A stretch of 64,000 nt of DNA from Patescibacteria group bacterium (GCA_041742135.1 JBGSJG010000008.1:32518-96517); one strand, 5' to 3'; counted from the stretch's first letter, positions 11,775-59,851 are shown. Program-made: numbers and translations. Notes: generated by a model from the sequence alone, not told the origin.

Positions 11775-11778
11775 AACT

Positions 11779-29511: not shown

Positions 29512-29523
29512 GCTATACTACAA

Positions 29524-44097: not shown

Positions 44098-45003
44098 GTG
44101 AAAAAAGTTGAAATATCAGTCGTTATCCCAAATTGGAACGGGGCATTTTTGCTTAAAAAAAATCTACCAAAAGTTATCGCGGCCAGTAAAAACAAGGTTA
44201 ACAATATCATTGAGATAATTATTGTCGACGACTTTTCAGGGGACGACTCTGTAGATTTACTTGAAAAAGAATTTGCATCAGACGTTCGTTTAATTAAACA
44301 TCAAAAAAATCAACGCTTTGCGGCCACCGTAAATACTGGCGTGCGTTTTTCTAAAGGGACGCATGTGTGTTTACTCAACACGGACGTTATCCCTACAGAG
44401 AACTTTCTGGAAAAAGTTATACCTAGCTTAAAAGACAAGCGCGTGTTTGGCGTTACGTTGCATGAAATTGGGTTTGGGCCAGCGGGTGGCTCGTTTGACG
44501 GTTATCTTGCCCACTACGGAAAGCCCGCAAGTACTTCAATTGAAAATACGCTTTGGATCAGTGGTGGCTCTGGAGTCTTTTCAAAAGAAAAGTGGCAAGA
44601 GCTTCATGGGTTGGATAGTGAGCTTTTTTCGCCGTTTTATTGGGAAGATGTTGACTTGGGGTACCGAGCTCATAAGCGTGGCTACCAGTTACTTTGGGAG
44701 CCTGGTGCTTTGGTTACACATAAACATGAATCCGTCACTAACCCAAAAAATTTTAAAAAAAGCTATTTATCTTTAATGAAGGAAAGAAACGAACTCTTAT
44801 TTATTTGGAAAAACATTACCAGTAAGAATCTTTTTGCAAAACATAAAAAGGCAGTTGTGGAAAGGATGATTAAGCATCCGGGCTACGCTAAAGTGGTGAT
44901 AGCAGCACTTCGTCGGTGGAATTTAGTCATGTCTCGTCGCGGACGCGAAAAAGCTGAATCTGTTGTTTCTGACGAAATGATCTTTGAAAAATTCTCCGTA
45001 TGA
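44098..45003 (+). CDS. GT2 family glycosyltransferase
   Basis: ISVVIPNWNGAFLL...IIVDDFSGDDS...LLNTDVIP. Confidence 0.65.
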   Translation: MKKVEISVVIPNWNGAFLLKKNLPKVIAASKNKVNNIIEIIIVDDFSGDDSVDLLEKEFASDVRLIKHQKNQRFAATVNTGVRFSKGTHVCLLNTDVIPTENFLEKVIPSLKDKRVFGVTLHEIGFGPAGGSFDGYLAHYGKPASTSIENTLWISGGSGVFSKEKWQELHGLDSELFSPFYWEDVDLGYRAHKRGYQLLWEPGALVTHKHESVTNPKNFKKSYLSLMKERNELLFIWKNITSKNLFAKHKKAVVERMIKHPGYAKVVIAALRRWNLVMSRRGREKAESVVSDEMIFEKFSV

Positions 45004-47204
45004 AATTATCTGTAATCATCGTCAATTACAACACGAAAGAAATTACGTTGGATTGTCTGCGTTCACTTGAGAAAAATCCATTTCGATCGCAATTTGAGGT
45101 AATTTTAGTCGACAATGCTTCGAGCGATGGATCAGAGGCGTCTCTTTCTAAATTCAGATCATCCAAGTTTTCCTACACTTTTGTGAGAAACGATCGCAAT
45201 CTTGGCTTTGCCAAAGCGAATAACATAGGGCTGAAAAAAGCGAAAGGCGAATACTGTTTGCTTCTTAATTCAGACACTTTGGTTTTGGAAGATTCACTAA
45301 ACGATCTTTACGATTTCGCAATAAAGCATCCGGATGCTGGGGTAATAGCTCCGAAGCTGTTAAATGGCGATAAAACGGTCCAAGCTTCTGTTTACAAGTT
45401 GCCAACAATCGCGAGGACTATTAAAGAATACTGGCTTGGCCAAAAAGGCTTAAATGACAAATATGTTCCACCCCAAAGCTCGCCAGTCTCGGTGGAGGCT
45501 GTGGTGGCGGCTGCGTTTTTAATTACACCTAAAGCGAAGAAAAAGGTTGGCTTGTTAGACGAGAAATATTTTATGTATTTTGAAGATCTTGATTATTGCA
45601 GAAGCGTTACCAAACAAGGCTTAAAAGTTTACTACTTGCCGAAAACAAAAATAGTCCATCTTCATGGCAAAAGCGGAGAAAACGCTGCTGCTCACGCCGA
45701 CCAGTGGAAAAGGCTTATTCCGTCAAGTAAGATTTACCACGGATTAATAACCCACTATATTCGTTGGTTTATTATGCGAACTAGCCAAGCTAGGCGTGAG
45801 CCGATTATTTTGGCAATAGTCCTTTTGGCACTTTTCTTCAGGCTTTATTACCTAAACGATAATTTGTTTTTTGGTTTTGAACAAGGAAGGGATTTTTTGA
45901 AATTTACAGAGATAGCTTCGGGAGATCCTACCTTGATTGGCCCAAAAACCGATATTGATGGAATATTTCATGGAGCTCTTTCGTATTATTTACCTTTACC
46001 TGCGTTCGTCCTTTTTTTAGGGAGCCCTTATCTGGTGCTAGCTTCGTTAATAGTGATTCACGCAATCTCCGTGTACTTTTTGCACAAGTTTGCTTTAAGT
46101 ATTGGGGACAAAAAATTTGCCACCTTTACAGCTTTAATTTATGCATGTTCGTATCCTTCAATTGTGTACGCGCGCTGGCTATCTAATCCAAACTTAGCCC
46201 CTGCCTTTGCGATTTTTGTATTTTATTTTTTGAGTCGTGCGAAACAGAACAAAATTAACCTTGTAATTGCAGCGATGTTTTGGGCCTTCATTTTTCATAT
46301 TCAAGTTATCGCAGCAATGATACTGATACTTCCGGTTTTGTTCTTCGTAATTTCAAAGAGAGTTTTGCAACTTAAGTACGCCATACTTTCTGCTCTTACG
46401 GTACTTGTCGTCTTGTCTACTTATGTTGCCTTTAATTTTATCAACGACAATATTTTGTATAACGGACTCATTAATTATTTTGCTGAGCTTGGAGGTCCGC
46501 GCATTTTCTCTCTTTCTGAGTTCTACAATCAAATTACTGATGAATTCATGCCTTCTTGGCGCTCAGGGGCTTTTATCTTATTGTCATTGTCAGTTTTTGC
46601 GGCACTGATTGATTGGCGAAGTTACAGATCTCGGCTGGTTCTTCTTCTGTATTTTTCGGCGCCGATTGTTTTTATGATTTTAGGAGTTACCCCACTCAGG
46701 CACTTGTTTATTCTATCGCCAGTTTTCGCATCGCTTTTGTTGGCCAATCTTGTAAGTTCTTCTATGCCGCGACTGCTCAAGACTGCTGGGCTTCTTTTGA
46801 TAATACTTGTCATCGTCGCTAGTATTGTTACGATTTTAGAGCGTTTACCAGAGAGTCAGCGAAATTATATTTATCCTGCACAGGCCACGTATCTTTCCGA
46901 CATGACTGAACTTATAGATTATGCCTATCAGGATTCAAACGGCACAGCTTTCAGTTATGATTATTATTCAATTCCCTATTGGCACAATGATTCTTGGCGA
47001 TATCTCTTTGGGTGGTATGGATTGAGAAAATACGGATCACTCCCGGCGGAAAATCGAACAGCTATTTTTTATGTCTTTATTGAGCCAGATGAAATTCAGC
47101 CTAAGTACCAGGAAGATTGGTACAAAAAAATGAATAGTGAAAGCCGCGTGCTAGAGTCTCGTAAATCAGGTAAACTAATACTAGAAAAGAGGCAAGTGTT
47201 GTGA
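45000..47204 (+). CDS. Fusion: GT2 glycosyltransferase (N-terminal) + PMT/ArnT-like GT-C membrane domain ('GDEGRD'-type, C-terminal)
   Basis: N-terminal LSVIIVNYNTKEI...ILVDNASSDGS...LLLNSDTLV (nt ~45000-45750). C-terminal FRLYYLNDNLFFGFEQGRDFLKFTEIASGDPTLIGPKTDIDGIFHGALSYY plus about 12 TM helices (nt ~45780-47204). Confidence 0.65.
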   Translation: MKLSVIIVNYNTKEITLDCLRSLEKNPFRSQFEVILVDNASSDGSEASLSKFRSSKFSYTFVRNDRNLGFAKANNIGLKKAKGEYCLLLNSDTLVLEDSLNDLYDFAIKHPDAGVIAPKLLNGDKTVQASVYKLPTIARTIKEYWLGQKGLNDKYVPPQSSPVSVEAVVAAAFLITPKAKKKVGLLDEKYFMYFEDLDYCRSVTKQGLKVYYLPKTKIVHLHGKSGENAAAHADQWKRLIPSSKIYHGLITHYIRWFIMRTSQARREPIILAIVLLALFFRLYYLNDNLFFGFEQGRDFLKFTEIASGDPTLIGPKTDIDGIFHGALSYYLPLPAFVLFLGSPYLVLASLIVIHAISVYFLHKFALSIGDKKFATFTALIYACSYPSIVYARWLSNPNLAPAFAIFVFYFLSRAKQNKINLVIAAMFWAFIFHIQVIAAMILILPVLFFVISKRVLQLKYAILSALTVLVVLSTYVAFNFINDNILYNGLINYFAELGGPRIFSLSEFYNQITDEFMPSWRSGAFILLSLSVFAALIDWRSYRSRLVLLLYFSAPIVFMILGVTPLRHLFILSPVFASLLLANLVSSSMPRLLKTAGLLLIILVIVASIVTILERLPESQRNYIYPAQATYLSDMTELIDYAYQDSNGTAFSYDYYSIPYWHNDSWRYLFGWYGLRKYGSLPAENRTAIFYVFIEPDEIQPKYQEDWYKKMNSESRVLESRKSGKLILEKRQVL

Positions 47205-48874
47205 AAAAGTACAGTCTACTGATTATTATTCTTCTTTTGACGTCGTTTCTCCGGTTATATAAGCTAGACCACGTCCCTGTGAGTCTGTTTGGGGACGAAA
47301 TGGATTTGGGCTATCAAGCTTATTCTATTTTAAAAACTGGTAATGATTATTACGGAAACTTCATGCCATTTCACTTTCATTCCTTGGCAGAGTGGAGAAC
47401 GCCTCTTTATTTGTATTCAGCAGTCCCAACTGTCGCTTTGTTTGGCATTTCACCTCTGGGAGTCAGACTCCCTGCAGCAATTTTTGGAATTTTGGGCGTA
47501 GTCGCCTTTTACTTCTTGGTTAAAATTATTCGCGAATCGTTCATGAAATCGGGAAGCACCCGCATTGAGGCAGTCGGAGCTTTTCTCCTGGCCATTTCAC
47601 CTTGGCATATCCAATACAGCCGTGCAGGTTTTGAAGTAACAGAAATGCTTTTTTTCCTGATAACAGGTATTTATTTCTTCCTTCGCGGGCTCAAGGATGG
47701 AAAATACTTATGGCTTTCGGCAGTCTGCCTTACTTTGACTCCTTGGATTTATAGCACTGCAAAAATGTTCGTTCCTTTTTTAATAATTTTTCTTGTAGTA
47801 ACTTTTCGAAAGGAGCTTGTGAAGACCTCAAAAAAGCACCTTCTGTCCGCAATCGTTGCTCTTCTTGTTGTTGGTTTGCCGATTGCAGCAAGTACACTGT
47901 TTGGCGGTGGCAGCCAACGTTTTGGTTACATATCGGTATTTACAGATCCTACAATAGAACACGAGATCGGAGTAGCGCGAGATATCGACGCCTGGGGAAA
48001 CTCAATTGCTTCCCGCGCATTTCACAATAAATTTGTTGTCTGGGCAGAGGCGATAGGCAACAATATGCTCCAGAGTTATTCTACTGATTATCTTTTTATT
48101 AGAGGTGATATTAATCTTCGCCACTCCATTGAAGATATGGGAATGCTCTATAAAGTCGAGATAGTCGCGCTTTTGTTGGGCATTGTTTATTTCTTTAGAG
48201 CCAAAGCAGACAGAAGAATTAAGTACCTTCTAGCCTTTTGGTTATTGGCAGGCGTGGTGCCATCAGCAATAACTCGTGAAGGAGGAAGCCATGGGACTAG
48301 GCTAATTTTAATCTTGCCACCTCTTATACTGCTTGTGGCTTCTGGTGTAAGCTGGCTTTCGAAAAACAAGATCTACCTTTTTCTTTACACTTTTGTTTTG
48401 TGCGGACTGTTTGTAATTTATCAGCATAACTTCTGGGTTCATAATCCAAAGTATTCAGAGCGTTGGTGGCATTATGGATGGCAAGAAGCGGTGGATAGCA
48501 TCAAAGCTGTAGAAGGAAGCTATGACAAAGTTGTGATCTCTACGGCGGATGAGCCACCTTGGGTGTTTTTTGCTGGGGCTTATGAATACGACCCCAAATC
48601 TTGGCAGGAAAATTTTCCATTAGATAACAAAGCCGATCTTGAGGGCTTCGGTTCGGTTTCTTATATCGATAAGTACTATTTCGGAAGTCCCAAGGCCGGT
48701 CTTTACGATTGGGGGAAAATTATCGATTCAAAAACGCTTTATTTGGCATCAACCCGAGAGGTGGGAGTGAATTTGATTCGCGAGCCCGAGCGAACCCCCG
48801 GGGATTTGAAATTAATTGATTCCATCGCTTTCCCGTCAGGCGAGCCTGCATTTTACTTGTTTACCCACAGATGA
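47201..48874 (+). CDS. PMT/ArnT-family GT-C glycosyltransferase (COG1807-like), tandem paralog 1
   Basis: LRLYKLDHVPVSLFGDEMDLGYQAYSILKTGNDYYGNFMPFHF...LFGISPLGVRLPAAIFGILGVVAFYFL. About 11 TM helices and a ~200-aa soluble C-terminal domain. Confidence 0.65.
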   Translation: MKKYSLLIIILLLTSFLRLYKLDHVPVSLFGDEMDLGYQAYSILKTGNDYYGNFMPFHFHSLAEWRTPLYLYSAVPTVALFGISPLGVRLPAAIFGILGVVAFYFLVKIIRESFMKSGSTRIEAVGAFLLAISPWHIQYSRAGFEVTEMLFFLITGIYFFLRGLKDGKYLWLSAVCLTLTPWIYSTAKMFVPFLIIFLVVTFRKELVKTSKKHLLSAIVALLVVGLPIAASTLFGGGSQRFGYISVFTDPTIEHEIGVARDIDAWGNSIASRAFHNKFVVWAEAIGNNMLQSYSTDYLFIRGDINLRHSIEDMGMLYKVEIVALLLGIVYFFRAKADRRIKYLLAFWLLAGVVPSAITREGGSHGTRLILILPPLILLVASGVSWLSKNKIYLFLYTFVLCGLFVIYQHNFWVHNPKYSERWWHYGWQEAVDSIKAVEGSYDKVVISTADEPPWVFFAGAYEYDPKSWQENFPLDNKADLEGFGSVSYIDKYYFGSPKAGLYDWGKIIDSKTLYLASTREVGVNLIREPERTPGDLKLIDSIAFPSGEPAFYLFTHR

Positions 48875-50148
48875 ACCGCAAACTGGTTTTGGTTTTTTTG
48901 ACAGCGCTACTGTTGCGTCTTGTTTTGTCCCCTCTTTTTTGGCATCCAGATGTCACAAACCATCTCGATTGGGGGATAAGATTTTTTGAGTACGGTATCG
49001 ATAAAATATACGCTCCCGAGTCAAACGTCTGGTCGTTTACTTGGCCAAATCAGCCTCCCGGAACAATGCTTATTTTTGCCTTTATTCGAAAGTTCTACGA
49101 GTTGGTATTTGGTTTTTTGTGGAACATAAACGTTTCAATTCCAAGTTTCCCCTCTGTGATTATCACACTTGCCCAGAGCTATTTGTATCAAGTATTCGTT
49201 AAGCTGCCGGCAATTCTTTCCGATCTCGGGATCGCCTACTTAATATATTTGTTTGTAGAGAAATTTAATAAAAAATCAGCAATTTGGGCAGCTGCAGCAT
49301 TTCTGTTTAATCCGGTAATTTGGTACAACTCCTCAGTCTGGGGACAAACGGATGCGGTTGTAAATTTCTTGTTTTTGTTGGGCTTTTGGTTACTGCTCAA
49401 AAAACGCCTTTTTTACTCAATGATTTTTGTTTGCTTGTGTTTATTTGTCAAAATTTCACTCGCAATATTTTTGCCAATATTTATCATCTTTCTCATTCGG
49501 CAAAAATTCTCTTGGAGTAAAATACTTTTTTCAGGCCTACTATCTTTTGTAATTATCATGCTAATCACGTTGCCGTTTTCGGGGGGCAACAATCCTACCC
49601 CGTGGCTTTATGAGATTTATAAAACCAAAGTCATGACCAATCAACTGCAAGTCATTACTGCCAATGCGTTTAACATTTGGATTAGCTTGACCGGAATTGC
49701 CGAAAAGCCACATACCCTATTTTTAGGACCGCTTACCTATCAATCTTGGGGAGTTTTGCTTTTTGGAGCCTCGATAATTCCCGTCTTCGTCATGCTCTGG
49801 AAAAAGCCCACTGAACTAGCTGCGATTTGGGGCTTCTTTATTATCGCTTTTTCTTCGTGGTTGCTTCTTACTAACATGCACGAGCGATATCTATATCCAG
49901 CTTTCCCATTTTTGACAATTTTGGCTTTCAAATACAAAAAGATGCTTCCGGTTCTATTCGGACTTTCGGCGCTAAACTTGTTAAACCTATACAATCTCTG
50001 GTGGACGCCGCTCATCCCTTTCGTCAAAAATATAATGTCCTATTCTGACTTTTTGCTGGCTCGCGTCTTTGGTATCGTTAATACGGTTTTTTACATGATC
50101 AGCTATAAGCAGTATTTGATAGATAGTCGCGATATAATTAAAAAATGA
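48871..50148 (+). CDS. Multi-pass membrane protein, GT-C-like (DUF2029/GT87-like?)
   Basis: About 11 TM helices. LFWHPDVTNHLDWGIRFFEYG loop. Inserted between PMT-like paralogs. Confidence 0.3.
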   Translation: MNRKLVLVFLTALLLRLVLSPLFWHPDVTNHLDWGIRFFEYGIDKIYAPESNVWSFTWPNQPPGTMLIFAFIRKFYELVFGFLWNINVSIPSFPSVIITLAQSYLYQVFVKLPAILSDLGIAYLIYLFVEKFNKKSAIWAAAAFLFNPVIWYNSSVWGQTDAVVNFLFLLGFWLLLKKRLFYSMIFVCLCLFVKISLAIFLPIFIIFLIRQKFSWSKILFSGLLSFVIIMLITLPFSGGNNPTPWLYEIYKTKVMTNQLQVITANAFNIWISLTGIAEKPHTLFLGPLTYQSWGVLLFGASIIPVFVMLWKKPTELAAIWGFFIIAFSSWLLLTNMHERYLYPAFPFLTILAFKYKKMLPVLFGLSALNLLNLYNLWWTPLIPFVKNIMSYSDFLLARVFGIVNTVFYMISYKQYLIDSRDIIKK

Positions 50149-51830
50149 GGTACAAATACATTTTTTTGGGGCTTATAGTTGGACTTGCTTTTGTACTGCG
50201 TTTTGTAGGTATTTCAAGCTATCCAGCTGGTTTTTCAGCTGACGAGGTAAACCAAGGCTACACCGCATATTCGATACTTAAAACCGGGCGAGACGAGTGG
50301 GGAGAGCTTTTTCCCGTTGCTCCGCGAGCCTACGGTGACTATCGAGCCCCGCTTTACACATATTTAACTGTGCCTTCAGTATTCTTGTTTGGACTAAACG
50401 AATTTGCGGTACGGTTCCCAAACGTCCTTGTTGGCACTATTGCTATCTTGGTTTTGTACCTTCTTTCTAAGGAATTATTTAAAAACTTCAAGAACTCTGA
50501 AGCAATTTCATTGTTAGCGGCCAGTATTCTTGCAATTAGTCCATGGCACGTGGGCATGTCGCGTGGCAGCTTTGAAACAAACTTGCCGTCACTACTGATT
50601 CCCTTGGCTTCACTTTTTTTCCTAAAAGGACTTGATAAGAAAAAGTACATGTTGGCTTCAATGATTTGTTTTGGGTTCAGTTTGTTCTCTTACTACTCAG
50701 CTCGGCTCCTTTTGCCATTCGTTTTATTGGCGTTTTATTTGCTCTTTGTGAGGCCAAAGTTTGGTGTTTTGCAGGCTGTTAAAAAATTCAAGCTTTCATT
50801 AATAGTTTTTGCCATCTTTGCTTTTCTAGCATCGTATACGATGTTCTTCGGAGCTCAAACAAGAATTGCTGACGTCGCGCTTTTTAATTCAGAGGCTATA
50901 TTCCGAACTGCGGCAGACCAAAAATACCAAGCAGTACTTTTGGGCTTGCCAGACACAATAGCCCGTCTGTTTTCGAACAAGGTTTTTGCGGTTGGTGAAC
51001 AAATAATTAAAAATTATTTAGGATATTTTTCGATTGAATTTTTGTTTACCCAAGGCGCTGGAGAAGCGACTTACGGACTCATGCCCGGCCGAGGACTGCT
51101 TCATCTAATTGAACTGCCATTTTTGTTGTTTTCGATTTATTCGATTTTACAAAACAAACTATATCGTGATCGAAGAATCTTGTTTATTTTAGTTGTTATT
51201 GCCATGGCACCGATCCCCGCATCTTTAACTGCGAGCGTTGGGTTTGCTGCAAATCGCTCAGCGCTTATGATTCCTTGGATTCACATTCTCGCGGCCTATG
51301 GTGCAATCGCACTCGCAAGCAAAATTAAAATCAAGAAAATTTGGATCGCCTTCGCAACATTTTATGTTTTTGCAACGGTTTTATTCTTGGAAGACTATTT
51401 TTTCCATGCCCCTATGCAAAATTCCCGTCAAATGAGCTATGGCTGGAAGCAGATGGCTTCGTATTTGGATGAAGTTTCAGATTCCTATCCCCAGGTAATT
51501 ATAAGCAGAAACTTGTCTGAGCCTCAGATGTTTTTAGCGTTCTATCTTAAAATTGACCCGCGCGTTGTTCAGAAAGAATCGCAGGACTGGTTAAGGTATC
51601 AAGCTAACGGGCTAAAATTTGTTGATCAATTGGGAGAATACAAAATCGCAAACTTCACAATCAGAAATCTAGATAGGAATTCAGATTTAAGATTGGATAG
51701 CGCACTGCTGGTTGGTAAGCCCGAGGATTTTCCTCACGATATCGTCCCAAGTTACTCTGTTAATTACCCGGATGGCCAACAAGCAATTATCGCGGTTTCA
51801 ACACGTGCGGAATATGCAAAAGGGAATTAA
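50145..51830 (+). CDS. PMT/ArnT-family GT-C glycosyltransferase, tandem paralog 2
   Basis: FSADEVNQGYTAYSILKTGRDEWGELFPVAPRAYGDYRAPLYTYL...LFGLNEFAVRFPNVLVGTIAILVLYLLSKE. Confidence 0.65.
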   Translation: MRYKYIFLGLIVGLAFVLRFVGISSYPAGFSADEVNQGYTAYSILKTGRDEWGELFPVAPRAYGDYRAPLYTYLTVPSVFLFGLNEFAVRFPNVLVGTIAILVLYLLSKELFKNFKNSEAISLLAASILAISPWHVGMSRGSFETNLPSLLIPLASLFFLKGLDKKKYMLASMICFGFSLFSYYSARLLLPFVLLAFYLLFVRPKFGVLQAVKKFKLSLIVFAIFAFLASYTMFFGAQTRIADVALFNSEAIFRTAADQKYQAVLLGLPDTIARLFSNKVFAVGEQIIKNYLGYFSIEFLFTQGAGEATYGLMPGRGLLHLIELPFLLFSIYSILQNKLYRDRRILFILVVIAMAPIPASLTASVGFAANRSALMIPWIHILAAYGAIALASKIKIKKIWIAFATFYVFATVLFLEDYFFHAPMQNSRQMSYGWKQMASYLDEVSDSYPQVIISRNLSEPQMFLAFYLKIDPRVVQKESQDWLRYQANGLKFVDQLGEYKIANFTIRNLDRNSDLRLDSALLVGKPEDFPHDIVPSYSVNYPDGQQAIIAVSTRAEYAKGN

Positions 51831-52449
51831 CTATAGATTGTTGTTTTTGATTCTTGTATGCTGCCCGTTCATCCTCTCTATCACCTTTCACTTTCCCGAT
51901 TTTGTAGATGCGTGGGTTGCTTATCCAAAGTTAGCTCAAGACAAAGTTCAATACCTTCTCTCCGATGGCTTGTTGGCAAATGCGCTTGAGATGAGGCAGA
52001 CAAACATGTATGGCTCAGGAGTGATTTTTTACCTTTCAAAATTACTGTATGGAAAGCCCATTTTGTACATTTCCGAGTTTATTTCGTGGCTTTCATATTT
52101 TTCGCCAAGGTTTTATTTTCAAGCGGGAGATGCGAGCCTTTTTTCAACCAGATTTGTAGAGCCGATTGTTTTTTTACTTTCGCCGATTTGGGTTTTTGGT
52201 TTTTTTACGAGCATTAAGCTTAGGAAGTTTAAAGTAATTGTTTTGTATGTGGCATTTACCCTCTTGGCCTACATGTCAGGCAAGCGCGAGTTTGCATATT
52301 TATTGCCAGCAATCATGTTCATGATTTATTTTATATATTTAGGCTCAACTCGTCTTTTGCCCACCAGATGGTTTAGAAGGTATCTTGCTGTGTCAGTGGT
52401 CTATGGGGTGTACATTCTGCTTCGACTAGCTTACGCAATTAACATATGA
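51814..52449 (+). CDS. Small polytopic membrane protein (hypothetical)
   Basis: About 5 hydrophobic segments. Start taken at ATG 51814 (17-nt overlap with upstream). Confidence 0.3.
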   Translation: MQKGINYRLLFLILVCCPFILSITFHFPDFVDAWVAYPKLAQDKVQYLLSDGLLANALEMRQTNMYGSGVIFYLSKLLYGKPILYISEFISWLSYFSPRFYFQAGDASLFSTRFVEPIVFLLSPIWVFGFFTSIKLRKFKVIVLYVAFTLLAYMSGKREFAYLLPAIMFMIYFIYLGSTRLLPTRWFRRYLAVSVVYGVYILLRLAYAINI

Positions 52450-54065
52450 AGAAAATACTAATCGGCATATTTCTTTTGGCATTTTTTATTAGGATCGCCT
52501 ATGTTGGTTCATACCCTCTTAGCTTATCAATGGACGAGTTATCGATTGGATACAACGCATATTCAATATCTGAAATTGGAATGGATGAGTGGGGGGTTCG
52601 TTACCCGCTCGTATTTAGATCTCTTAGCGACTACAAACCACCAGTAAGTGTTTATTTAGTGGCCATTTCGGTTCGACTTTTTGGATTAAATGAATTTTCG
52701 GTCAGGTTCCCAAATGTTCTCATAGGATCGCTAAGCGTCTTAGTGTTTTTTGGCTTACTGAGAGAACTTAAATTTAATAAAACGATATCGCTGGTTGGAG
52801 CAGCTTGGTTGGCCATAAACCCTTGGCATGTTTTTTATTCTAGAGCTGGTTTTGAGACATTGATTGCTTTATTTTTTGTAATAGCTGGTATTTGGTTCTT
52901 TCTTCGTGGAGTCAGTCGTAAATCAAGTTTAATTTTAAGTTTGAGTGCTATTGCCTTTTCTCTGTCAGTGTGGACGTACCACGCCGAACGGATATATGTG
53001 CCTATTCTTGTCTTTATCTTGGTTGTTTTAAAAAGAAAAGAGCTTTTGGTAATGCTAAAAGCGCAAAAGATCAAGCTTATTTTTCCCTTTTTGACCACTA
53101 TCCTTTTTGCAGCACCGTTTATTTATATGTGTGTATTTGCTGGTGATACTACTGCACGAGCATTTTCAACTTCTCTGCTTCGAGATTTTCATTTAACTGG
53201 CAGTCTTCACGCACACGGATACAGTGACGTTTTAGATATGATTTTTAATAACGACATCTTTTTAATCTTTAGACACTTTTTAGGAAAATACCTAAACTAT
53301 ATCGACGTAGAGTTTTTGTTCAAAAATGGACTTCACCTGACTCTTCCAGAGTATCCCGGAATGGGGTTGCTTTACCTAGTGGACTTGCCGGTTGTGCTTG
53401 TCGGAGTCTGCTCGGTTGTTACACACAAAAGCACTTTTCTTAAAAAAATTACACTTGCTCTTTTTTTTCTTGGGCCATTGGCGGCCGCTTCGACGCTAGA
53501 TGAGCAGCACACCCTTAGAGCTTTAACTTGGCTGCCGTTTTGGGGCATTATTTTTGTTTCAGGAGTGGATTATGTTGTTAAGCAAAGAATACGCTTGATT
53601 AAGCCTGTTGTAGCATTTTACTCACTAGCTCTTTTGCTTAATTTTACTTATTTTGCAGACATGTACGTGCGACAGTTTCCTTATTTTTACAGCGAACTCT
53701 GGCTTTACGGCTACAAAGAAGCGTCTATTTTGGCTTGTGCCGAAAAAGACAATTACGATTATATAGTTTTAACGGATACTTTCGGGCAAGATGGCCCACT
53801 TTACACAGGAGTGCCGTATGAATATGTGCTTTTTTATTGCAACATCCACCCTTCAGAGTTTTTGGCAAATGGAAGGAAAATCCCCAAAATACTAATGAGG
53901 CGTCCAGACTGGCCAAGCGACGTCAAAAAAGATATGCTTGTTATCGCAGCGCCTTACGATTTTCCGCTTGATCAGATCGATCAAAAGCAAATTGTCAAAA
54001 CGATCTCGTATTATAACGGGAAAAAGGCCTTTATAGCAGTTACAACTAGACTAAATGAAGAATAA
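52446..54065 (+). CDS. PMT/ArnT-family GT-C glycosyltransferase, tandem paralog 3
   Basis: SMDELSIGYNAYSISEIGMDEWGVRYPLVFRSLSDYKPPVSVYL...LFGLNEFSVRFPNVLIGSLSVLVFFGLLRE. Confidence 0.65.
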   Translation: MKKILIGIFLLAFFIRIAYVGSYPLSLSMDELSIGYNAYSISEIGMDEWGVRYPLVFRSLSDYKPPVSVYLVAISVRLFGLNEFSVRFPNVLIGSLSVLVFFGLLRELKFNKTISLVGAAWLAINPWHVFYSRAGFETLIALFFVIAGIWFFLRGVSRKSSLILSLSAIAFSLSVWTYHAERIYVPILVFILVVLKRKELLVMLKAQKIKLIFPFLTTILFAAPFIYMCVFAGDTTARAFSTSLLRDFHLTGSLHAHGYSDVLDMIFNNDIFLIFRHFLGKYLNYIDVEFLFKNGLHLTLPEYPGMGLLYLVDLPVVLVGVCSVVTHKSTFLKKITLALFFLGPLAAASTLDEQHTLRALTWLPFWGIIFVSGVDYVVKQRIRLIKPVVAFYSLALLLNFTYFADMYVRQFPYFYSELWLYGYKEASILACAEKDNYDYIVLTDTFGQDGPLYTGVPYEYVLFYCNIHPSEFLANGRKIPKILMRRPDWPSDVKKDMLVIAAPYDFPLDQIDQKQIVKTISYYNGKKAFIAVTTRLNEE

Positions 54066-55701
54066 ACTATTACTTGCAATTTTTGTTTTTGCCTTGATTA
54101 TCAGGGTTTGGAACATTAATGCCCTTCCACCGTCGCTCAATTGGGACGAAGTAAGCCATGGATATAATGCCTATTCAATAATCCAAACTGGTAAGGATGA
54201 ATGGGGGGAGGTCTTGCCATTAATATTTCGGGCATATGGCGATTACAAATTGCCAGTCTACATTTACTTGACTGCGCTTTTTGAGTATCTACTAGGTGTA
54301 AGCGTACTTTCAGTTAGGCTGACTTCCATTTTGGCTGGTAGCTTTTCTGTAGTGCTAGTTTATTTTTTGTCGTTAGAAATATTCAAAAAGAGAAGCACTG
54401 CCACAATTTCAGCCTTACTTATGGCGATAGTCCCGTGGAGTTTGTTTCTCTCCCGTATCGCTTTGGAAGCCAACTTGGCTTTGGCGTTGGTGATTGCAGG
54501 TTTTTTGTTTTTCATAAAAGGAGTCCGTGGGTCGAAATGGCTATTGGTTGTAAGTATGTTGTTTTTTGGGTTATCGATGTGGACATATAATTCATGTCGA
54601 GTCTTTGTTCCCATAATCATGGTCTTAATGGGAATTTTATACAGAGCAGAACTTAGCCAAAAACTTAAAGCTAACAAGCGTGTTTTTATTGCTATCGCTG
54701 TAGTTCTTACAGTAATTTTTACTCCGGTAGCGTATCAGATGGTAAATTCGGTAGGGCTTGCGCGCTACGAAAATATACAAATTCTTGATTCAGGAGCAAT
54801 AGCGCGCATCGAGAATTCTAGGGCTTCATCAGGCTTGCCTAGCATCCCTGCGCGGCTGGTTTATAACAAGGCAACATATATGGCAATAAATATTTTTGGA
54901 AATTATACAAAACATTTTGGACTGAATTTTCTATTTTTTACAGGAGGAGATAACTACCAATTTAGTGTTCCCGGGCAAGGACTTTTATATATCGTAAATA
55001 TTCCATTTTTATTCATAGGGCTTTGGGCCACGAGGAAAGTAAAATCTAAAGAAAAAATACTGCTTTTGTTATGGCTATTTGCGGCACCAATTGCAGCTAG
55101 CATCACACGGGAGTCACCTCATGTGTTGCGTAGTATCTTGATGCTGCCACCATTAGTTATTCTGATAGGCTTGGGTGTTTCCTTTTTTGATCGTTACAGA
55201 TTTTCAACTAAAAGAATTTTATTGTTTGTCTACGTGACAGCACTTTTGATAAGTTTTGCGGATTATGCCCACAATGCACTGAATATCTACAGACAAAGAT
55301 ATTCACAATCTTGGCAATATGGGTACGAGCAGCTAGTAGATAAAATTCGCGATAGGTATGACAGTTATGAGAAAATTGTTATTACTAAGAAGTATGGTGA
55401 GCCACATGAGTTCTTGTTTTACCACTGGCCTTGGTCGCCCGCAATGTTGCAGGCTGATACAAGTAAAATTCAATTTAAGCAATCAAACTGGTATTGGACT
55501 GACAAGTTTGACAAGTTTTATTTTGTTAATGACTGGGATATTCCAAAAACGGGGGTTAAGTTTGTACTTGAAAGTGGGCAAGAAATTGAATGTGCCAGCT
55601 GCATGCTAATTACCGCTGGAGGAGCACCTGAGAATTGGAGACAGTTGGACACGATTTATTTTCTAGATGGCTCTGTTGCTTTTGAAATATATGAACATTA
55701 A
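54055..55701 (+). CDS. PMT/ArnT-family GT-C glycosyltransferase, tandem paralog 4
   Basis: NWDEVSHGYNAYSIIQTGKDEWGEVLPLIFRAYGDYKLPVYIYL...SVRLTSILAGSFSVVLVYFLSLE. Confidence 0.65.
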   Translation: MKNKLLLAIFVFALIIRVWNINALPPSLNWDEVSHGYNAYSIIQTGKDEWGEVLPLIFRAYGDYKLPVYIYLTALFEYLLGVSVLSVRLTSILAGSFSVVLVYFLSLEIFKKRSTATISALLMAIVPWSLFLSRIALEANLALALVIAGFLFFIKGVRGSKWLLVVSMLFFGLSMWTYNSCRVFVPIIMVLMGILYRAELSQKLKANKRVFIAIAVVLTVIFTPVAYQMVNSVGLARYENIQILDSGAIARIENSRASSGLPSIPARLVYNKATYMAINIFGNYTKHFGLNFLFFTGGDNYQFSVPGQGLLYIVNIPFLFIGLWATRKVKSKEKILLLLWLFAAPIAASITRESPHVLRSILMLPPLVILIGLGVSFFDRYRFSTKRILLFVYVTALLISFADYAHNALNIYRQRYSQSWQYGYEQLVDKIRDRYDSYEKIVITKKYGEPHEFLFYHWPWSPAMLQADTSKIQFKQSNWYWTDKFDKFYFVNDWDIPKTGVKFVLESGQEIECASCMLITAGGAPENWRQLDTIYFLDGSVAFEIYEH

Positions 55702-57370
55702 ACGAATCGCACTTGTGGCTATATTGGTTTTGGCAGCAATTTTGCGTCTTTATAAGCTGGGTGAGTTTCCCATACACCTTACCAACGACGAAGCTGGATT
55801 GGGATACAACGCTTATTCAATCTTGCAAACTGGCAGAGATGAGCACGGGAATTTGTTCCCAGTGATTTTTAAGTCATTTGGGGATTGGAAGCCGGGACTT
55901 TATGTATATCTTTCTGTTCCCACAATCGCCCTTTTTGGGTTAAGCGAATTTTCAGTACGGCTTCCTTCTGCGCTCATGGGAATATTGGCCGTTTTATATA
56001 TTTACAAACTTGGATCAAAACTTTTTGGTGATAAAGTTGGCTTATTTTCTGCTCTATCTCTGGCGCTACTTCCTTGGCATATTCATTTCTCCAGAGGTGC
56101 CTGGGAGGCAAATGTCGCATTAACTTTGCTAATCGGAGGAGTTTATTACTTTCTAAAGTCATTTGAAAATAATAAATATTTTGTTTTGTCTGCGCTGTTT
56201 CTTTCCTTGACCCTATGGTCTTATCAAAGTGCAAAGATCGCGAGCTTGATTGTTTTGGTAGGATTAGCGTTTTTATACCACAAGCAGTTATTCAAAATTA
56301 AGTTTAAATACCTTGTGTCTGCCTTGATACTGGGACTATTAGTATCCTTGCCTATCGTTTTGTCATTGTTCACAGGAAAAGCGGGTCGCGCAAACGTGAT
56401 GAGCGTTTTTTCTTATACTCGTTCGGAAGAGTACATAGAAGAAACCGTTTTTGCTCACGAAAATATCACTAGAGATAGTCCGATTTTTGCGCTGTACCAC
56501 TCAGAAGCGCTTAACTTGTTTCGAGGCATATCTGGTAGATATCTTAACTACCTAAGTGGTAAGTTTCTGTTTTTCGAAGGCGATTGGTCCAATCCGAGGC
56601 ATACATCTGTCGACTCTGGATATTTGCTTTATGTTGACATAATAATCTTTGTTTTGGGAATTATTGGAATTTTGAAGCGAAAAATGTCAAAAGAAGTTGC
56701 GTTTGTTTGGTTTTTATTTTTGGTTTCTCAGGTTCCCGCGGCTTTGACTCGTGACAGTGCGCATGGTGTTAGATCTCTTGGAATGATATTTCCTATTTCC
56801 TTGATACTCGGTTACGGTTTAAATGACTTGGTACATTATTTACAAATGAATAAATTGGCCATTAGGTTATTTGGCTTTATTGCGTTGGTTTCCGCTTTCG
56901 TGTATAGCATGGCAATTTACTTAGACGCTTATTATGTCCAAAATAAATACCTAGAGCCAAAAGATTATTTTTATGGGTATAAACAAGTAGTCCAGAAAGT
57001 ATTTGAAAGAGAAACAAAGTATGAAAAAATAGTTTTTTCTCAAAGCTACGATCAGCCCTATATCTTCTTTTTGTTTTTCGGAGCTATGGATGGGGACTCG
57101 AGATTTTCAGCATGGGAGTATCAGAAAGAAAGTAGCTTTGAAGAGAACCAGTGGGGAGACGTTGGTTTAATCAAGAAGCTGGGCAATATTGAATTTAGAC
57201 CAATTAATTGGTATGACGACCGAGGCTTGGGGAACACACTTTTTATCGTCCGTGAAGAAGATGTCTCAAAAAGCGATTTGATCAGTAAGGAATTTAATAT
57301 TGAGACTGTAAGTTACCCCGATGGAAAAACAGCATTTATCTTAATAAACAAAAATGAAATTAATCAATAA
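55691..57370 (+). CDS. PMT/ArnT-family GT-C glycosyltransferase, tandem paralog 5
   Basis: TNDEAGLGYNAYSILQTGRDEHGNLFPVIFKSFGDWKPGLYVYL...LFGLSEFSVRLPSALMGILAVLYIYKLGSK. Start chosen at Met 55691 (MNIKRIALV...), which gives the same N-terminal length as the paralogs; the track ORF begins at 55667. Confidence 0.6.
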   Translation: MNIKRIALVAILVLAAILRLYKLGEFPIHLTNDEAGLGYNAYSILQTGRDEHGNLFPVIFKSFGDWKPGLYVYLSVPTIALFGLSEFSVRLPSALMGILAVLYIYKLGSKLFGDKVGLFSALSLALLPWHIHFSRGAWEANVALTLLIGGVYYFLKSFENNKYFVLSALFLSLTLWSYQSAKIASLIVLVGLAFLYHKQLFKIKFKYLVSALILGLLVSLPIVLSLFTGKAGRANVMSVFSYTRSEEYIEETVFAHENITRDSPIFALYHSEALNLFRGISGRYLNYLSGKFLFFEGDWSNPRHTSVDSGYLLYVDIIIFVLGIIGILKRKMSKEVAFVWFLFLVSQVPAALTRDSAHGVRSLGMIFPISLILGYGLNDLVHYLQMNKLAIRLFGFIALVSAFVYSMAIYLDAYYVQNKYLEPKDYFYGYKQVVQKVFERETKYEKIVFSQSYDQPYIFFLFFGAMDGDSRFSAWEYQKESSFEENQWGDVGLIKKLGNIEFRPINWYDDRGLGNTLFIVREEDVSKSDLISKEFNIETVSYPDGKTAFILINKNEINQ

Positions 57371-58991
57371 AAATATTATTCTAATTTTAATTCTTCTCTT
57401 GGCTGGTATTCTTCGCGTTTACCAGCTTGATGTTTATCCAGCGTTAAATGCCGACGAGGCCTCCATCGGTTACGATGCTTACTCGCTAATTGAGACTGGA
57501 AAAGATCAGCATGGAAATTCGTGGCCTATCCATTTCCAGTCCTTTAATGACTATAAACCTGGTGGCTACGTTTATGCAGTTTTACCATTTGTGTATTTAT
57601 TTGGACTTAATGAATGGAGTGTGCGACTGCCGGGTGCGATTTTTGGAATTTTTACAGTCTTGGCAGTCTATCTTTTGGCCCGTGAGCTAAACGTAGGAAA
57701 CTCCAAACTTAAAATTGTTTCAGCTCTTCTTTTAGCTATTTCTCCGTGGCATATTCATTTCTCCAGAGGTGGCTGGGAAGTTAATATGGCAACTTTTTTG
57801 ATAACTTTGGGATTATATTTTTTTGTTAAAGCTCAAAGGCAGATGAAGTATTTGGTCATTAGTGTTTTGCTTTTGACTCTCAGTCTTTACACCTATCATG
57901 CTGCTCGTGTGATAGTTCCACTTTTGGGGTTGGGGCTTTTGGCAATTTATCGAAAGACTTTGCTTTCAAAAGACAATCTCAGACTAAGCGTAGGGGCAGC
58001 TGTCTTTGTGTTTGTGCTGGTTGTTCCACTTATGAGCAATTTTTTTGGTGATGCTGTCTCCTCTCGGGCTTCGGGTGTGAGTATTTTGGCAGACCGAGGC
58101 TACATTGACAGAATTAACGAGAAAAGAGGAAGGCATGATAATCCCAGTTCGATTGTTAACAGGCTGATTTACAATAGACCGAAAGAAATTGCAATCGAGT
58201 TTGGTAAAAATTATCTAGAGCATTTTTGGGGCGATTTTCTATTTATATCAGGTGATGACATAGAGCGAAACAAGGTTTCAGAGTTTGGGCAATTGTACAT
58301 GTGGCAGCTTTTTGCATTAGTTGTTGGGGTAGTTGCTGTAGTCAAAAAACAAAAAGAGTGGGGAGTGGTTGTTTTATGGTTACTATTAGCACCGATTCCT
58401 GCTGCACTAACTTTTCAGTCACCACATGCACTTCGTGCGCAGAGTATGATTATTCCATTAATAATCCTTTCAGCTTTAGGTTTATGTATCGTGCTAGATT
58501 TTATAAAAAGAAAAGTCAGTAGCAAAACGCTTCGCACAATATTTTACCTCGCAATAAGCTTGGTAATTGTTTGGGATTTTTCAAGATATTTGCACAATTA
58601 TTGGGTTCACATGTCCAAGGCTTATCCATATTCATCTCAATACGGAGTAAAAGAATTGGTCAGTTATCTGGCTAATGAGCAGTCTCATGAAAAGAATATT
58701 ATAATAACTACAAGGTACGACCAACCTTACATCTTGTTCCTGTTTTATTTGAAATACCCTCCCAAGCAGTTTCAAAATGATCATGTGTTAAGTGGAAGGG
58801 ATGAATACGGTTTTTCTACAGTACCAACTTTTGATCGATATGAATTTAGAAAAATAAATTATGATACTGAATGGAGTTTATACCAGAATTCAGTGGTAGC
58901 TGGAACTGATGAGGAAATCGTTGAAGGGGCGAACGTAATAAAAAACATTTATGGGACGAACGGCTTTTTGTATTTCCAGGTAGTTAGATGA
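57354..58991 (+). CDS. PMT/ArnT-family GT-C glycosyltransferase, tandem paralog 6
   Basis: NADEASIGYDAYSLIETGKDQHGNSWPIHFQSFNDYKPGGYVYA...LFGLNEWSVRLPGAIFGIFTVLAVYLLARE. Confidence 0.65.
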   Translation: MKLINKNIILILILLLAGILRVYQLDVYPALNADEASIGYDAYSLIETGKDQHGNSWPIHFQSFNDYKPGGYVYAVLPFVYLFGLNEWSVRLPGAIFGIFTVLAVYLLARELNVGNSKLKIVSALLLAISPWHIHFSRGGWEVNMATFLITLGLYFFVKAQRQMKYLVISVLLLTLSLYTYHAARVIVPLLGLGLLAIYRKTLLSKDNLRLSVGAAVFVFVLVVPLMSNFFGDAVSSRASGVSILADRGYIDRINEKRGRHDNPSSIVNRLIYNRPKEIAIEFGKNYLEHFWGDFLFISGDDIERNKVSEFGQLYMWQLFALVVGVVAVVKKQKEWGVVVLWLLLAPIPAALTFQSPHALRAQSMIIPLIILSALGLCIVLDFIKRKVSSKTLRTIFYLAISLVIVWDFSRYLHNYWVHMSKAYPYSSQYGVKELVSYLANEQSHEKNIIITTRYDQPYILFLFYLKYPPKQFQNDHVLSGRDEYGFSTVPTFDRYEFRKINYDTEWSLYQNSVVAGTDEEIVEGANVIKNIYGTNGFLYFQVVR

Positions 58992-59851
58992 TCAAACTAA
59001 GTATAGTTTTAGCAGTTAGAAATGAGGAAGAAAATATTGCAAGATGCTTGAGCGCTGTTGCGGATATTGCTGATGAAATAATTATTTTTGATGAATATTC
59101 GGTGGATAAAACCCGTGATATCGCGAAGTCTTTTGGCGCGAAAGTATATTTGGAACCACATCACGCTAACTTCCATATTACAAAACAGAAAGCCATCAGC
59201 AAGGCTCGAGGCGAATGGATTTTGCAATTGGATGCAGATGAGGTGGTCACGCCTGAGCTTGCTCGCGAAATCATAGACGTTACCCAGATGAATTACGAGC
59301 AAATTATTTCTCGAAGGCCAAAGGAAAATAAAAAGTTGGTTTTATTTCAAAGACATTTGAAAGTGGTAGAGGAAAAAGATGGAAGTCTGGGTAAAAAGTC
59401 TGGGGAAATTGTTGCTTTCTTTGTTCCTCGAAGAAATATGTTTTTAGGAAAACCCTTAATTCACGCAGGTGTTTACCCCGATGCTGTCATCAGACTAATT
59501 AGACGTGGAAAGGCGTATCTTCCAGCCAAATCAGTACACGAGCAAATGGACATAGATGGAGAGGTGGCTTGGCTATTTAATGATTTACTTCACTTCGATT
59601 CCCCGACGCTAGCGAGATACTTTAGTAGACTAAACCGATACACAGACCTAAGGGCACAAGAGCTAAAAAACAGCAATGTATCTAAAGGGCTGCAAGGTTT
59701 CATCAAAGAAGTCGTAATTATGCCAATTTTGGTTTTTGTAAAGTTATACTTACGACACAAAGGGTTTTTGGACGGTCCTCGCGGGTTTATGTGGTCAGCC
59801 CTGTCAGCTAGTCATTTTCCCATTTCATATTTTAAATACATCACAAAATGA
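58988..59851 (+). CDS. GT2 family glycosyltransferase (WaaE/KdtX-like), paralog C
   Basis: LSIVLAVRNEEENIARCLSAVADIADEIIIFDEYSVDKTRDIAKSFGAKV...LDADEVVTP; clear paralog of 40508 and 42323. Confidence 0.65.
   Translation: MIKLSIVLAVRNEEENIARCLSAVADIADEIIIFDEYSVDKTRDIAKSFGAKVYLEPHHANFHITKQKAISKARGEWILQLDADEVVTPELAREIIDVTQMNYEQIISRRPKENKKLVLFQRHLKVVEEKDGSLGKKSGEIVAFFVPRRNMFLGKPLIHAGVYPDAVIRLIRRGKAYLPAKSVHEQMDIDGEVAWLFNDLLHFDSPTLARYFSRLNRYTDLRAQELKNSNVSKGLQGFIKEVVIMPILVFVKLYLRHKGFLDGPRGFMWSALSASHFPISYFKYITK

Follow-up and report, generated by a model that had tools for sequence, protein, structure and literature searches.

The window analysed here is a stretch of 64,000 nucleotides from a Microgenomates (CPR/Patescibacteria) bacterium, an uncultivated, ultra-small organism. 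It contains a string of co-directional genes for GT-C-type membrane glycosyltransferases that has conserved GT2 and GT4 genes on its flanks and a Wzx-like flippase nearby:

37261..38835, +, Wzx-like (MOP) flippase in the same co-directional gene string (Pfam Polysacc_synt_3, E 1e-51)
42984..44096, +, GT4 glycosyltransferase of the conserved upstream block (Pfam Glycos_transf_1)
44098..45003, +, GT2 glycosyltransferase of the conserved upstream block (Pfam Glycos_transf_2)
45000..47204, +, GT2::GT-C-like fusion, 734 aa (Pfam GT2, hhalign)
47201..48874, +, GT-C paralog A, 557 aa (PMT_2, E 2.2e-11)
48871..50148, +, X, 425-aa putative GT-C of PIG-M/GT87/PIG-U type (Pfam GT87, ortholog profile)
50145..51830, +, GT-C paralog B, 561 aa (PMT_2, E 3.5e-14)
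51814..52449, +, Y, 211-aa membrane protein (profile-profile comparison with the family)
52446..54065, +, GT-C paralog C, 539 aa (PMT_2, E 8.2e-13; PMT, E 1.4e-8)
54055..55701, +, GT-C paralog D, 548 aa (PMT_2 and PMT matches)
55691..57370, +, GT-C paralog E, 559 aa, the structure-modelled copy (100% identical to P0001)
57354..58991, +, GT-C paralog F, 545 aa (PMT_2, PMT, sub-threshold GtrII match)
58988..59851, +, conserved GT2 glycosyltransferase directly 3' of F (Pfam GT2)
59848..60915, +, conserved downstream GT4 glycosyltransferase (Pfam Glycos_transf_1)

The six co-directional reading frames reported in the initial annotation are thus all present on the plus strand, with 539-567 aa. For the fifth, which had been given two alternative starts, 55691 is the better one, yielding the 559-aa protein P0001, and 55667 is not preferred. 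From 45000 to 60915, with Y starting at 51814 and E at 55691, there is a 4-17 nt overlap at every gene junction, and promoter and terminator matches do not exceed their frequency in shuffled sequence; both observations fit, and support, an operon structure. Elsewhere in the window, beyond the six-copy finding, there are about 8 further GT-C-like genes.

Family, fold and conserved residues of the six paralogs

In pairwise BLASTP comparisons, the paralogs are 28-35% identical to one another over 450-580 residues, far above chance, and no DNA-level repeats were found among the six copies, so that these are old duplicates, as originally proposed. The shared motifs are also real: in the alignment of the six copies, R18, D32-E33, G37 Y38 x A40 Y41 S42 and G47 x D49 are invariant, Y425-G426 marks the start of the C-terminal domain, and the YGDYKPP-like hairpin and the LFGLxEFSVRLP stretch are recognizable, with some deviations in copy A. 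All copies and their orthologs keep the acidic motif of the first loop; among 60 homologs, E34 never varies and D33 shows at least 90% conservation.

All six copies match Pfam PMT_2 (PF13231; COG1807-like) with 40.7-53.8 bits, above the gathering threshold of 26.1, and copies C, D and F additionally pass Pfam PMT (PF02366; threshold 22.7 bits) with 35.0, 40.1 and 37.1 bits, respectively; A, B and E have no match to the latter model. Two equivalog models were rejected, namely bacterial Pmt (NCBIfam NF058602), matched by copy C only at 18.4 bits against a cut-off of 800, and ArnT (NCBIfam PRK13279), matched by copies C and D only at 16 bits against a cut-off of 567. Assignment to the oligosaccharyltransferases (OST; STT3/AglB/PglB; GT66) was discarded as well, the WWDYG motif and the OST-type C-terminal domain being absent. 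No copy has a Pfam match to MIR domains, and a profile search of PDB sequences with the paralog family returned no match at E <= 1. By these sequence comparisons, the assignment of the six copies to the GT-C enzymes of the PMT_2 (COG1807-like) family is supported, and they appear not to be specifically PMT or ArnT orthologs; of the initial label "PMT/ArnT-family", the PMT_2 placement stands and the implied orthology falls. Of the two outcomes that the initial annotation had named as refuting it, placement outside PMT_2/ArnT (COG1807) and loss of the acidic first-loop motif, neither was observed. As to family, the array proteins are ordinary. Their relatives are named "glycosyltransferase family 39 protein" and, in some cases, "ArnT family" at NCBI.

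In the structural model of copy E (pLDDT 93), the polypeptide crosses the membrane many times and contains the conserved helical core of GT-C enzymes; a periplasmic alpha/beta domain forms its C-terminal part, an architecture that matches that of ArnT. About 11 TM helices, as first described, fit the model as well as the hydropathy profile and the positive-inside rule; the soluble C-terminal domain outside the membrane, previously put at about 200 aa, measures about 135 aa in the model, and the loop 228-315 is short and helical. In Foldseek, ArnT has the highest mutual TM-score (0.54/0.56), E-values are about 1e-8 for OST and ArnT, and PMTs rank far lower (1e-3 to 8e-6). Judging from the model, OST, ALG12 and ArnT are equally close to the paralog fold, and PMT is more distant.

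The likeness to ArnT (CAZy GT83; PDB 5EZM/5F15) extends to the GT-C-A fold, the C-terminal periplasmic alpha/beta domain and the acidic loop-1 residues, and one could accordingly imagine a modification of membrane lipids (lipid A or a glycolipid head group) that alters surface charge or confers resistance to antimicrobial peptides, the more so as some relatives carry the ArnT name. We regard such a role as very improbable. The array copies are only 12-14% identical to ArnT and have 11 predicted TM helices against its 13, the equivalog score falls far below its cut-off (16 bits against 567), and the Ara4N genes ArnA, B and D are absent from the window, which encodes only generic ArnC-like GT2s. 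CPR bacteria are not known to make LPS, and 5-6 conserved paralogs exceed the needs of a simple head-group modification.

Conservation reaches at least 90% in all six orthogroups at eight positions (D33, E34, D50, R90, R135, E139, R233 and R361), all of which lie at the outer face in the modelled, self-consistent 11-TM topology. Computation shows a predicted extracytoplasmic catalytic loop bearing the invariant Asp-Glu pair, with conserved basic residues at the outer face, and residue conservation supports the prediction that all six copies are catalytically competent. The ratio of within- to between-orthogroup identity is highest, at 2.0-2.1, in loop 228-315 on the periplasmic side and in the C-terminal domain, which are the parts that diverge most between orthogroups, and lower in the TM core (1.56) and loop 1 (1.47). 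This pattern fits, and lends support to, different acceptors being served by a common chemistry.

X, Y and the GT2::GT-C-like fusion

The two interspersed genes had been put forward as possible accessory subunits. The product of 48871 (X), initially left unclassified, is itself a predicted GT-C glycosyltransferase. It reaches 25.7 bits with Pfam GT87 (cut-off 25), a threshold that, of the 11 orthologs, the copy in the window alone passes, and 2 of the 11 orthologs match the PIG-U model. A profile of the 11 orthologs matches a GPI mannosyltransferase 1 in the PDB (E 5.5e-8 over 114 residues), and the motifs H25-x-D27, NQPP, WGQTD and HERY are invariant. Sequence comparison thus points to a PIG-M/GT87-like protein, for which the GT-C class is clear and the family less so.

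The product of 51814 (Y), previously described as a 5-TM protein and possible accessory subunit, turns out to be a truncated homolog of the paralog family: residues 44-205 align with family positions 245-417 (probability 96.4%, E 1.4e-9). Y covers the last periplasmic loop and the last four TM helices, that is, the last third of the membrane domain, and lacks the DE loop and the C-terminal domain. Its orthologs occur only in loci L016, L021, L030 and L079 of the survey described below, all four of which also carry C, and orthologs of C (at least 40% identity) were found in just 5 of 83 loci. C is a lineage-restricted accessory copy, and Y-C an accessory module.

The array extends further than first claimed: the gene at 45000 combines a Pfam GT2 domain (residues 4-134) with a C-terminal part of 469 aa that is 8-TM and GT-C-like, with the DE motif replaced; residues 266-734 align with family positions 16-238 (hhalign, probability 85%, E 6.6e-6). 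In L001, L003 and L005, the GT2 half and the GT-C-like half are each encoded by a gene of their own.

Conservation of the array in Microgenomates

We surveyed synteny in 84 loci from related genomes, representing Woese-, Blackburn-, Shapiro-, Ames-, Davies- and Levy-bacteria. Nearly all keep the order D-E-F-GT2-GT4, and A-X-B mostly lies upstream: D adjoins E in 71 of 74 loci and E adjoins F in 74 of 76, the order E-F-GT2 is kept in 69/73, E-F-GT2-GT4 in 61/70 and B-D-E in 52/66. Across Microgenomates, positional orthologs, one to one and in unchanged order, exist for five of the six copies, with 40-70% identity to the orthologs versus 28-35% among paralogs (52-70% for A; 37-55%, in the same position, for B). 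Syntenic orthologs of the upstream GT4 (42984; 57-62% identity) are present in L001-L003 and those of the upstream GT2 (44098; 60-67%) in L001-L003 and L005; a flippase of the Polysacc_synt_3 family follows the GT4 in L001, L003 and L004. Every orthogroup is monophyletic in the tree, a test that is partly circular because orthogroups were assigned by best BLAST hit, and the deep branches of the NJ tree are too short to order the duplications.

The one-to-one positional orthologs indicate fixed, non-redundant roles of the copies, and, from the conserved gene order and the separate ortholog of each copy, the array appears to be an operon that is ancient and fixed rather than variable and combinatorial. 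The combinatorial surface decoration proposed in the initial annotation, comparable to phage-type Gtr serotype conversion, would account for the presence of the Y-C module in 4-5 of 83 loci, for the copy number of 3-7 per locus and for the extra divergent copies that some loci have between A/X and B, at times on the opposite strand. Nevertheless, it is highly unlikely, given that the core copies are one-to-one and in fixed order across the sampled, deeply divergent Microgenomates candidate lineages, that repeats or recombination-prone DNA identity are lacking, and that the locus showed no mobile-element genes.

The same regularity could also reflect obligate hetero-oligomers, as in Pmt1-Pmt2 or EmbA-EmbB, in which case the array would encode one or a few multi-subunit enzymes instead of six independent steps. 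The gene overlaps and the strictly kept order and co-occurrence fit complex formation, and Y, a partial homolog, is always found with C, which suggests a physical partnership. All six orthogroups, however, have kept every one of the catalytic and phosphate-binding-like residues, so that no copy looks like a dead scaffold subunit, and we consider obligate oligomers improbable. The two models are compatible: complex formation and stepwise glycosylation by the array enzymes do not exclude each other.

A candidate pathway for a cell-envelope glycan

The genes around the array bear on its likely product. Small GT2s resembling ArnC, PpgS and Dol-P-hexose synthases are encoded at 22793, 29524 and 31759, with sub-threshold scores; these polyprenyl-phosphate sugar synthase-like genes lie 15-28 kb upstream of the operon and none lies within it. 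None of the in-operon GT2s passes the curated thresholds for such synthases, so the DPM1-like GT2s once attributed to the locus are not assignable in the operon. A GtrA domain occurs only in a GT2-GtrA fusion (19220-20368), outside the conserved operon. Downstream genes encode a polysaccharide deacetylase, an ATP-grasp protein and a HAD protein, and within the window no initiating phosphoglycosyltransferase, recognizable polymerase or ligase was found. The window also encodes a sortase and a small LAQTG-anchored surface protein; no Ser/Thr-rich candidate acceptor was seen among the inspected window genes lacking a Pfam family.

The surface protein is of interest for protein O-glycosylation, in which each PMT-like paralog would transfer a sugar from a polyprenyl-phosphate donor to Ser/Thr of its own class of secreted or surface proteins. 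Divisions of labour of this kind are known for the fungal PMT1/2/4 subfamilies, paralogs with distinct substrates, and for mammalian POMT/TMTC/TMEM260. Protein acceptors retain some plausibility because C, D and F pass Pfam PMT and the DE motif in the first extracytoplasmic loop is of the type that is a hallmark of PMTs (GT39: fungal Pmt1/2/4, actinobacterial Pmt); the family 39 name of the relatives points the same way. Even so, we deem this scenario unlikely, although the strongest of the competing ones: the Pmt equivalog is missed by a wide margin (18 bits against 800), the copies lack MIR domains, Foldseek places PMTs behind OST, ArnT and ALG enzymes, the GT2/GT4 flanks and the nearby flippase are typical of oligo- and polysaccharide pathways, and the Ser/Thr-rich acceptor is missing from the inspected genes.

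Several further known systems offer parallels. In the GtrA/GtrB/Gtr* and CsbB/GtcA/YfhO systems, a wall polymer is decorated by a GT-C that acts together with a small flippase and a GT2-type synthase of polyprenyl-phosphate sugars (PMC8035078). The window has counterparts in its GT-Cs, ArnC/PpgS-like GT2s and GT2-GtrA fusion, but those systems employ one GT-C per modification, in contrast to the 7-8 contiguous conserved GT-C-type genes here, and both the GtrA domain and the putative donor synthases are located 15-28 kb away from the operon.

In Rhizobium leguminosarum, RgtA/B/C/D together with RgtE are ArnT-like GT-C galacturonosyltransferases acting on the LPS core and lipid A; as in the array, several ArnT/PMT_2-type paralogs are involved, each addressing a different position of one envelope glycoconjugate. 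The Rgt enzymes share a polyprenyl-phosphate sugar donor, and rgtA, B and C are adjacent genes. The array differs in having 5-6 paralogs plus the PIG-M/GT87-like GT-C and the GT2::GT-C-like fusion, in its CPR host, which is not known to have LPS, and in the lack of a detectable one-to-one sequence relationship beyond the common Pfam family. RgtA and RgtB are both listed as adding GalA to the outer Kdo (PMC4402001), and Brown et al. 2012 (cited in PMC9393093) name the five rgt genes in their title.

Sets of GT-Cs that extend one glycan stepwise with polyprenyl-phosphate sugars are represented by ALG3/9/12/6/8/10 in the ER lumen and by the mycobacterial PimE, AftA-D and EmbA-C, all acting extracytoplasmically once cytoplasmic GTs have done their part and the product has been flipped. 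X is similar to the PIG-M/GT87 (PimE) class. There is no orthology with either set, the functional analogy being drawn from gene content alone, and we know of no case in which these enzymes form one tandem operon of close paralogs.

The best explanation, which we hold to be probable by a modest measure, is that the region is the core of an ancient Microgenomates operon, comprising paralogs A, B, D, E and F, the Y-C module, X and the fusion, whose non-redundant GT-Cs glycosylate stepwise outside the cytoplasmic membrane. Cytoplasmic GT2 and GT4 enzymes would make a lipid-linked precursor and polyprenyl-phosphate monosaccharide donors, both would then be flipped across the membrane, and each GT-C paralog would attach a single sugar to one defined site on the same cell-envelope glycan, in a series analogous to the ALG enzymes or the mycobacterial LM/LAM/arabinogalactan GT-Cs. 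The donor type, sugars and acceptor we infer only by analogy; for the acceptor, a glycan attached to a lipid or to the wall is the likeliest candidate, ahead of a protein. More tentatively, and with doubts that outweigh our confidence, A-X-B-D-E-F with the GT2/GT4 genes and the flippase may be a bacterial single-operon counterpart of the ER-lumen ALG or mycobacterial LAM pathway, in which at least 7 GT-Cs, possibly as a complex, would use polyprenyl-phosphate sugars to build one defined glycan at the membrane's outer face.

We found no description of a conserved multi-GT-C operon in the literature open to searching. The recurrence of the ordered set throughout the lineage points to a fixed multi-step pathway for a cell-surface glycan, and, if the ALG/LAM counterpart reading is true, this lineage-wide glycan would be a previously unrecognized major envelope component of Microgenomates.

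The tandem array and its protein family

The six ORFs that the initial annotation listed as tandem GT-C paralogs are all present in the window and contain the motifs quoted for them.

Tandem GT-C paralogs of the array
47201-48874, + strand: copy A, 557 aa
50145-51830, + strand: copy B, 561 aa
52446-54065, + strand: copy C, 539 aa
54055-55701, + strand: copy D, 548 aa
55691-57370, + strand: copy E, 559 aa
57354-58991, + strand: copy F, 545 aa

The window is a single long string of genes for glycan biosynthesis, nearly all on the + strand and with a GC content of about 40%; glycosylation genes fill most of its 64 kb, and at least 16 genes are GT-C-like. Between 45000 and 60915, there is an overlap of 4-17 nt at every gene junction (with 51814 taken as the start of Y, the gene between B and C, and 55691 as that of E), and shuffled sequence yields promoter- and terminator-like matches at least as often as the array does, which fits a single operon. 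The residues R18, D32-E33, G37-Y38-x-A40-Y41-S42, G47-x-D49, R89 and Y425-G426 are invariant in the alignment of all six copies. Pairwise identity is 28-35% over essentially the full length and no DNA-level repeats were found between the copies, so that these genes are old duplicates, as initially proposed, and recent duplication or gene conversion is rejected for lack of such repeats.

All six copies score above the Pfam PMT_2 gathering threshold (41-54 bits vs 26.1), in broad agreement with the family assignment in the initial annotation, and three of them (C, D and F) pass the Pfam PMT threshold as well. None of three curated models fits: the ArnT equivalog model gives 16 bits vs a cut-off of 567, the bacterial Pmt equivalog model 18 vs 800, and the Agl23 model at most 44 vs 126. 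A profile search recovers 6,427 clusters (50% identity) at E <= 1e-30, nearly all of the best 150 of these 6,427 matches being full-length; the six belong, as unremarkable members, to a family that is very large and has already been annotated. Relatives are deposited as "glycosyltransferase family 39 protein", "ArnT family glycosyltransferase" or hypothetical, and the names "GT39" and "ArnT family" claim more than is known of these proteins.

The six-copy profile matches none of the PDB sequences at E <= 1, and the tie of the copies to solved GT-Cs comes only from comparison of a predicted fold. The AlphaFold2 model of copy E, with 60 homologs as input (pLDDT 93.2, pTM 0.92), scores 25.9 against AglB, 25.2 against ArnT, 25.0 against ALG12, 23.5 against STT3B and 23.2 against Pmt4. 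Foldseek places OSTs and ArnT at the top (~1e-8) and PMTs far lower, the best mutual TM-score being that with ArnT (0.54/0.56). ArnT-like modification of lipid A is unlikely, given that the equivalog scores are far too low and that Ara4N genes are absent from the window. The predicted topology, for which secondary structure, hydropathy and the positive-inside rule are self-consistent, comprises 11 TM helices with the N-terminus inside; on the outer side, it would place a first loop of 65 residues, a large one at 228-315 and, C-terminally, an alpha/beta domain of ~135 aa. An x-W-x-Y-G motif follows the last TM helix; its equivalence to the OST WWDYG motif is rejected because the Asp is not conserved, and the isolated C-terminal domain has no match to OST domains either.

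Conserved synteny across Microgenomates

Four contigs with E orthologs, and then 80 species-representative loci, were compared with the window, ORFs being assigned by best BLAST match to window genes. The named relatives are Candidatus Woesebacteria, Blackburnbacteria, Shapirobacteria, Amesbacteria, Daviesbacteria and Levyibacteriota, with others designated just as Microgenomates or Patescibacteria; the nearest is a Woesebacteria MAG (locus L005, 62% identity). With X denoting gene 48871, located between A and B, the gene order is GT4(42984)-GT2(44098)-GT2/membrane(45000)-A-X-B-D-E-F-GT2(58988)-GT4(59848).

Conservation of gene order; denominators are loci with enough flanking sequence
D-E adjacency: 71/74 loci
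E-F adjacency: 74/76 loci
E-F-GT2: 69/73 loci
E-F-GT2-GT4: 61/70 loci
B-(Y-C)-D-E: 52/66 loci
A, X and B all upstream: 35/63 loci
5-6 family copies within 10 kb either side: 38/46 loci

Each paralog has its own ortholog at ~40-70% identity, clearly above the 28-35% between paralogs, and every orthogroup is monophyletic in a neighbor-joining tree of 80 sequences, in which the deep branches are very short. The exception is copy C, with orthologs in just 5/83 loci. The initial annotation envisaged a combinatorial surface glycosylation system on the strength of six diverged copies; because orthology is one-to-one and fixed, this idea is disfavoured.

In many related loci (L009, L017, L020, L025-L027, L030, L041, L053 and L068), an extra divergent family copy, absent from the window, lies between A/X and B, usually on the opposite strand; its best match is E (29-35% identity). 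Many Microgenomates-type contigs (among L009-L081) are deposited as "uncultured Gammaproteobacteria bacterium" (binchicken, SRP co-assembly MAGs) and one as "Clostridia bacterium", labels that look wrong from gene content and synteny.

Interspersed and neighboring genes

X, initially left unclassified, has a marginal Pfam GT87 match, and a profile built from 11 orthologs finds, among PDB sequences, GPI mannosyltransferase 1 (PIG-M; E 5.5e-8); two of the orthologs match PIG-U. The motifs H-x-D, NQPP, WGQTD and HERY are invariant. X is a second type of GT-C.

The orthologs of Y (51814-52449) are confined to loci that also carry C, and in the loci inspected Y lies between B and C. Early signals linking Y to the family were weak (hhalign E 0.026, phmmer E 6e-7); profile-profile comparison aligns it with family positions 245-417 (probability 96.4%, E 1.4e-9), which span the F-x-F-x-x-G-D outer loop and the final four TM helices; Y has neither the DE loop nor the C-terminal domain. 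A decayed pseudogene fragment is rejected, since orthologs adjoin C in L016, L021, L030 and L079 and 16 residues are invariant; Y is a conserved family homolog in truncated form. In the gene at 45000, upstream of A, a GT2 domain is fused to a membrane part; the C-terminal 469 aa can be aligned, at 85% probability and E 6.6e-6, with the family's N-terminal half and contain no DE motif; in several relatives, the two parts are separate genes.

Other parts of the window are also rich in glycosylation genes. Within 22793-32478, small GT2s at 22793, 29524 and 31759 alternate with the GT-C genes 23479, 27985, 30191 and 32468, each GT2 adjoining a GT-C gene outside the array; the best, sub-threshold matches of these GT2s are ArnC, PgfS, PpgS and dolichyl-phosphate hexose transferase, and the pairs look like donor-synthase and GT-C units. 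The GT-C genes 23479 and 27985 are 27% identical, and amid these genes lies a tandem set of three DHH/DHHA1 paralogs (25054-28052), NrnA-like phosphoesterases with lengths of 325-335 aa. The genes 32468, 34087 and 35735 (32468-37369) form a tandem triplet of large membrane-protein paralogs, 28-35% identical and unrelated to the array, with Pfam PTPS_related (PF10131) matched by two of them and PMT_2 also by one; the triplet seems to be a further GT-C-like family arranged in series. No Pfam/NCBIfam family is matched by three other large multi-TM proteins (494, 534 and 562 aa; 12525-15604 and 38798-40486), and for 38798 hhalign gives just a weak hit on the GT-C family (43% probability); the three are candidate GT-C-like, or polymerase- or ligase-like, enzymes. 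Four domains are joined in a single 1547-aa ORF (2025-6668), namely GT2 twice, a flippase-like Polysacc_synt membrane domain and GT4. A polysaccharide deacetylase-GT4 fusion (629 aa) followed by a PIG-L-type de-N-acetylase (9885-12525) suggests de-N-acetylated amino sugars in the product. At 16909-18007, a 193-aa protein with a signal peptide, a Gly/Ser-rich linker, a LAQTG sorting-like motif, a hydrophobic tail and an RRKRH end is encoded directly 5' of, and overlapping, a sortase ORF, a likely substrate-enzyme pair.

Function and biological meaning

Eight residues (in E numbering: D33, E34, D50, R90, R135, E139, R233 and R361) reach at least 90% conservation in all six orthogroups and all lie on the outer face in the proposed topology, so that every copy looks catalytically competent. 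Identity within orthogroups is 1.47 times that between orthogroups in loop 1, 1.56 times in the TM core, 2.12 times in the 228-315 loop and 2.00 times in the C-terminal domain, the pattern expected if the copies have donor chemistry in common and differ in acceptor recognition. The array sits in a polysaccharide-type cluster: besides several genes for GT2 and GT4 enzymes, there are a Wzx-like flippase gene at 37261, a GT2-GtrA fusion upstream, and HAD, ATP-grasp and DUF3473 deacetylase genes 3' of the array. A DPM1-like donor synthase role for a GT2 inside the operon is rejected, the matches being sub-threshold and generic only.

The family and fold of the copies, their conserved residues, the structure of the operon and its synteny come from computation; donor type, sequential action and acceptor are inferred. 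In the best-supported reading, the conserved, non-redundant GT-Cs would act on a single envelope glycan, extending or decorating it at the outer face of the cytoplasmic membrane with sugars from polyprenyl-phosphate donors. Protein O-glycosylation by the array paralogs, which the Pfam PMT matches and the DE motif favour, is a serious rival, and hetero-oligomers of the paralogs would be compatible with either the glycan or the protein model.

The nearest functional precedent is the set of ArnT-like paralogs RgtA-D/RgtE of Rhizobium (PMC4402001), as also indicated by the title of Brown et al. 2012, cited in PMC9393093, and the array has its general component logic in common with multi-component transmembrane glycosylation systems (reviewed in PMC8035078). 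It exceeds both in comprising 7-8 contiguous GT-C genes conserved across a superphylum. We found no description of these GT-C arrays in the searchable literature on CPR/Patescibacteria/Microgenomates; a Microgenomates genome paper just counts 29 glycosyltransferase genes (PMC7143001). What is new here is the conserved multi-GT-C operon, the proteins themselves being of a known, annotated family.

CPR/Patescibacteria have tiny genomes and are thought to be host-attached, which makes the envelope central to their biology. The order and orthologs of the GT-C operon are kept across Microgenomates and imply a conserved, multi-step surface glycan; X and the five core paralogs, with the GT2 and GT4 genes that flank them, provide a concrete set for heterologous reconstitution.
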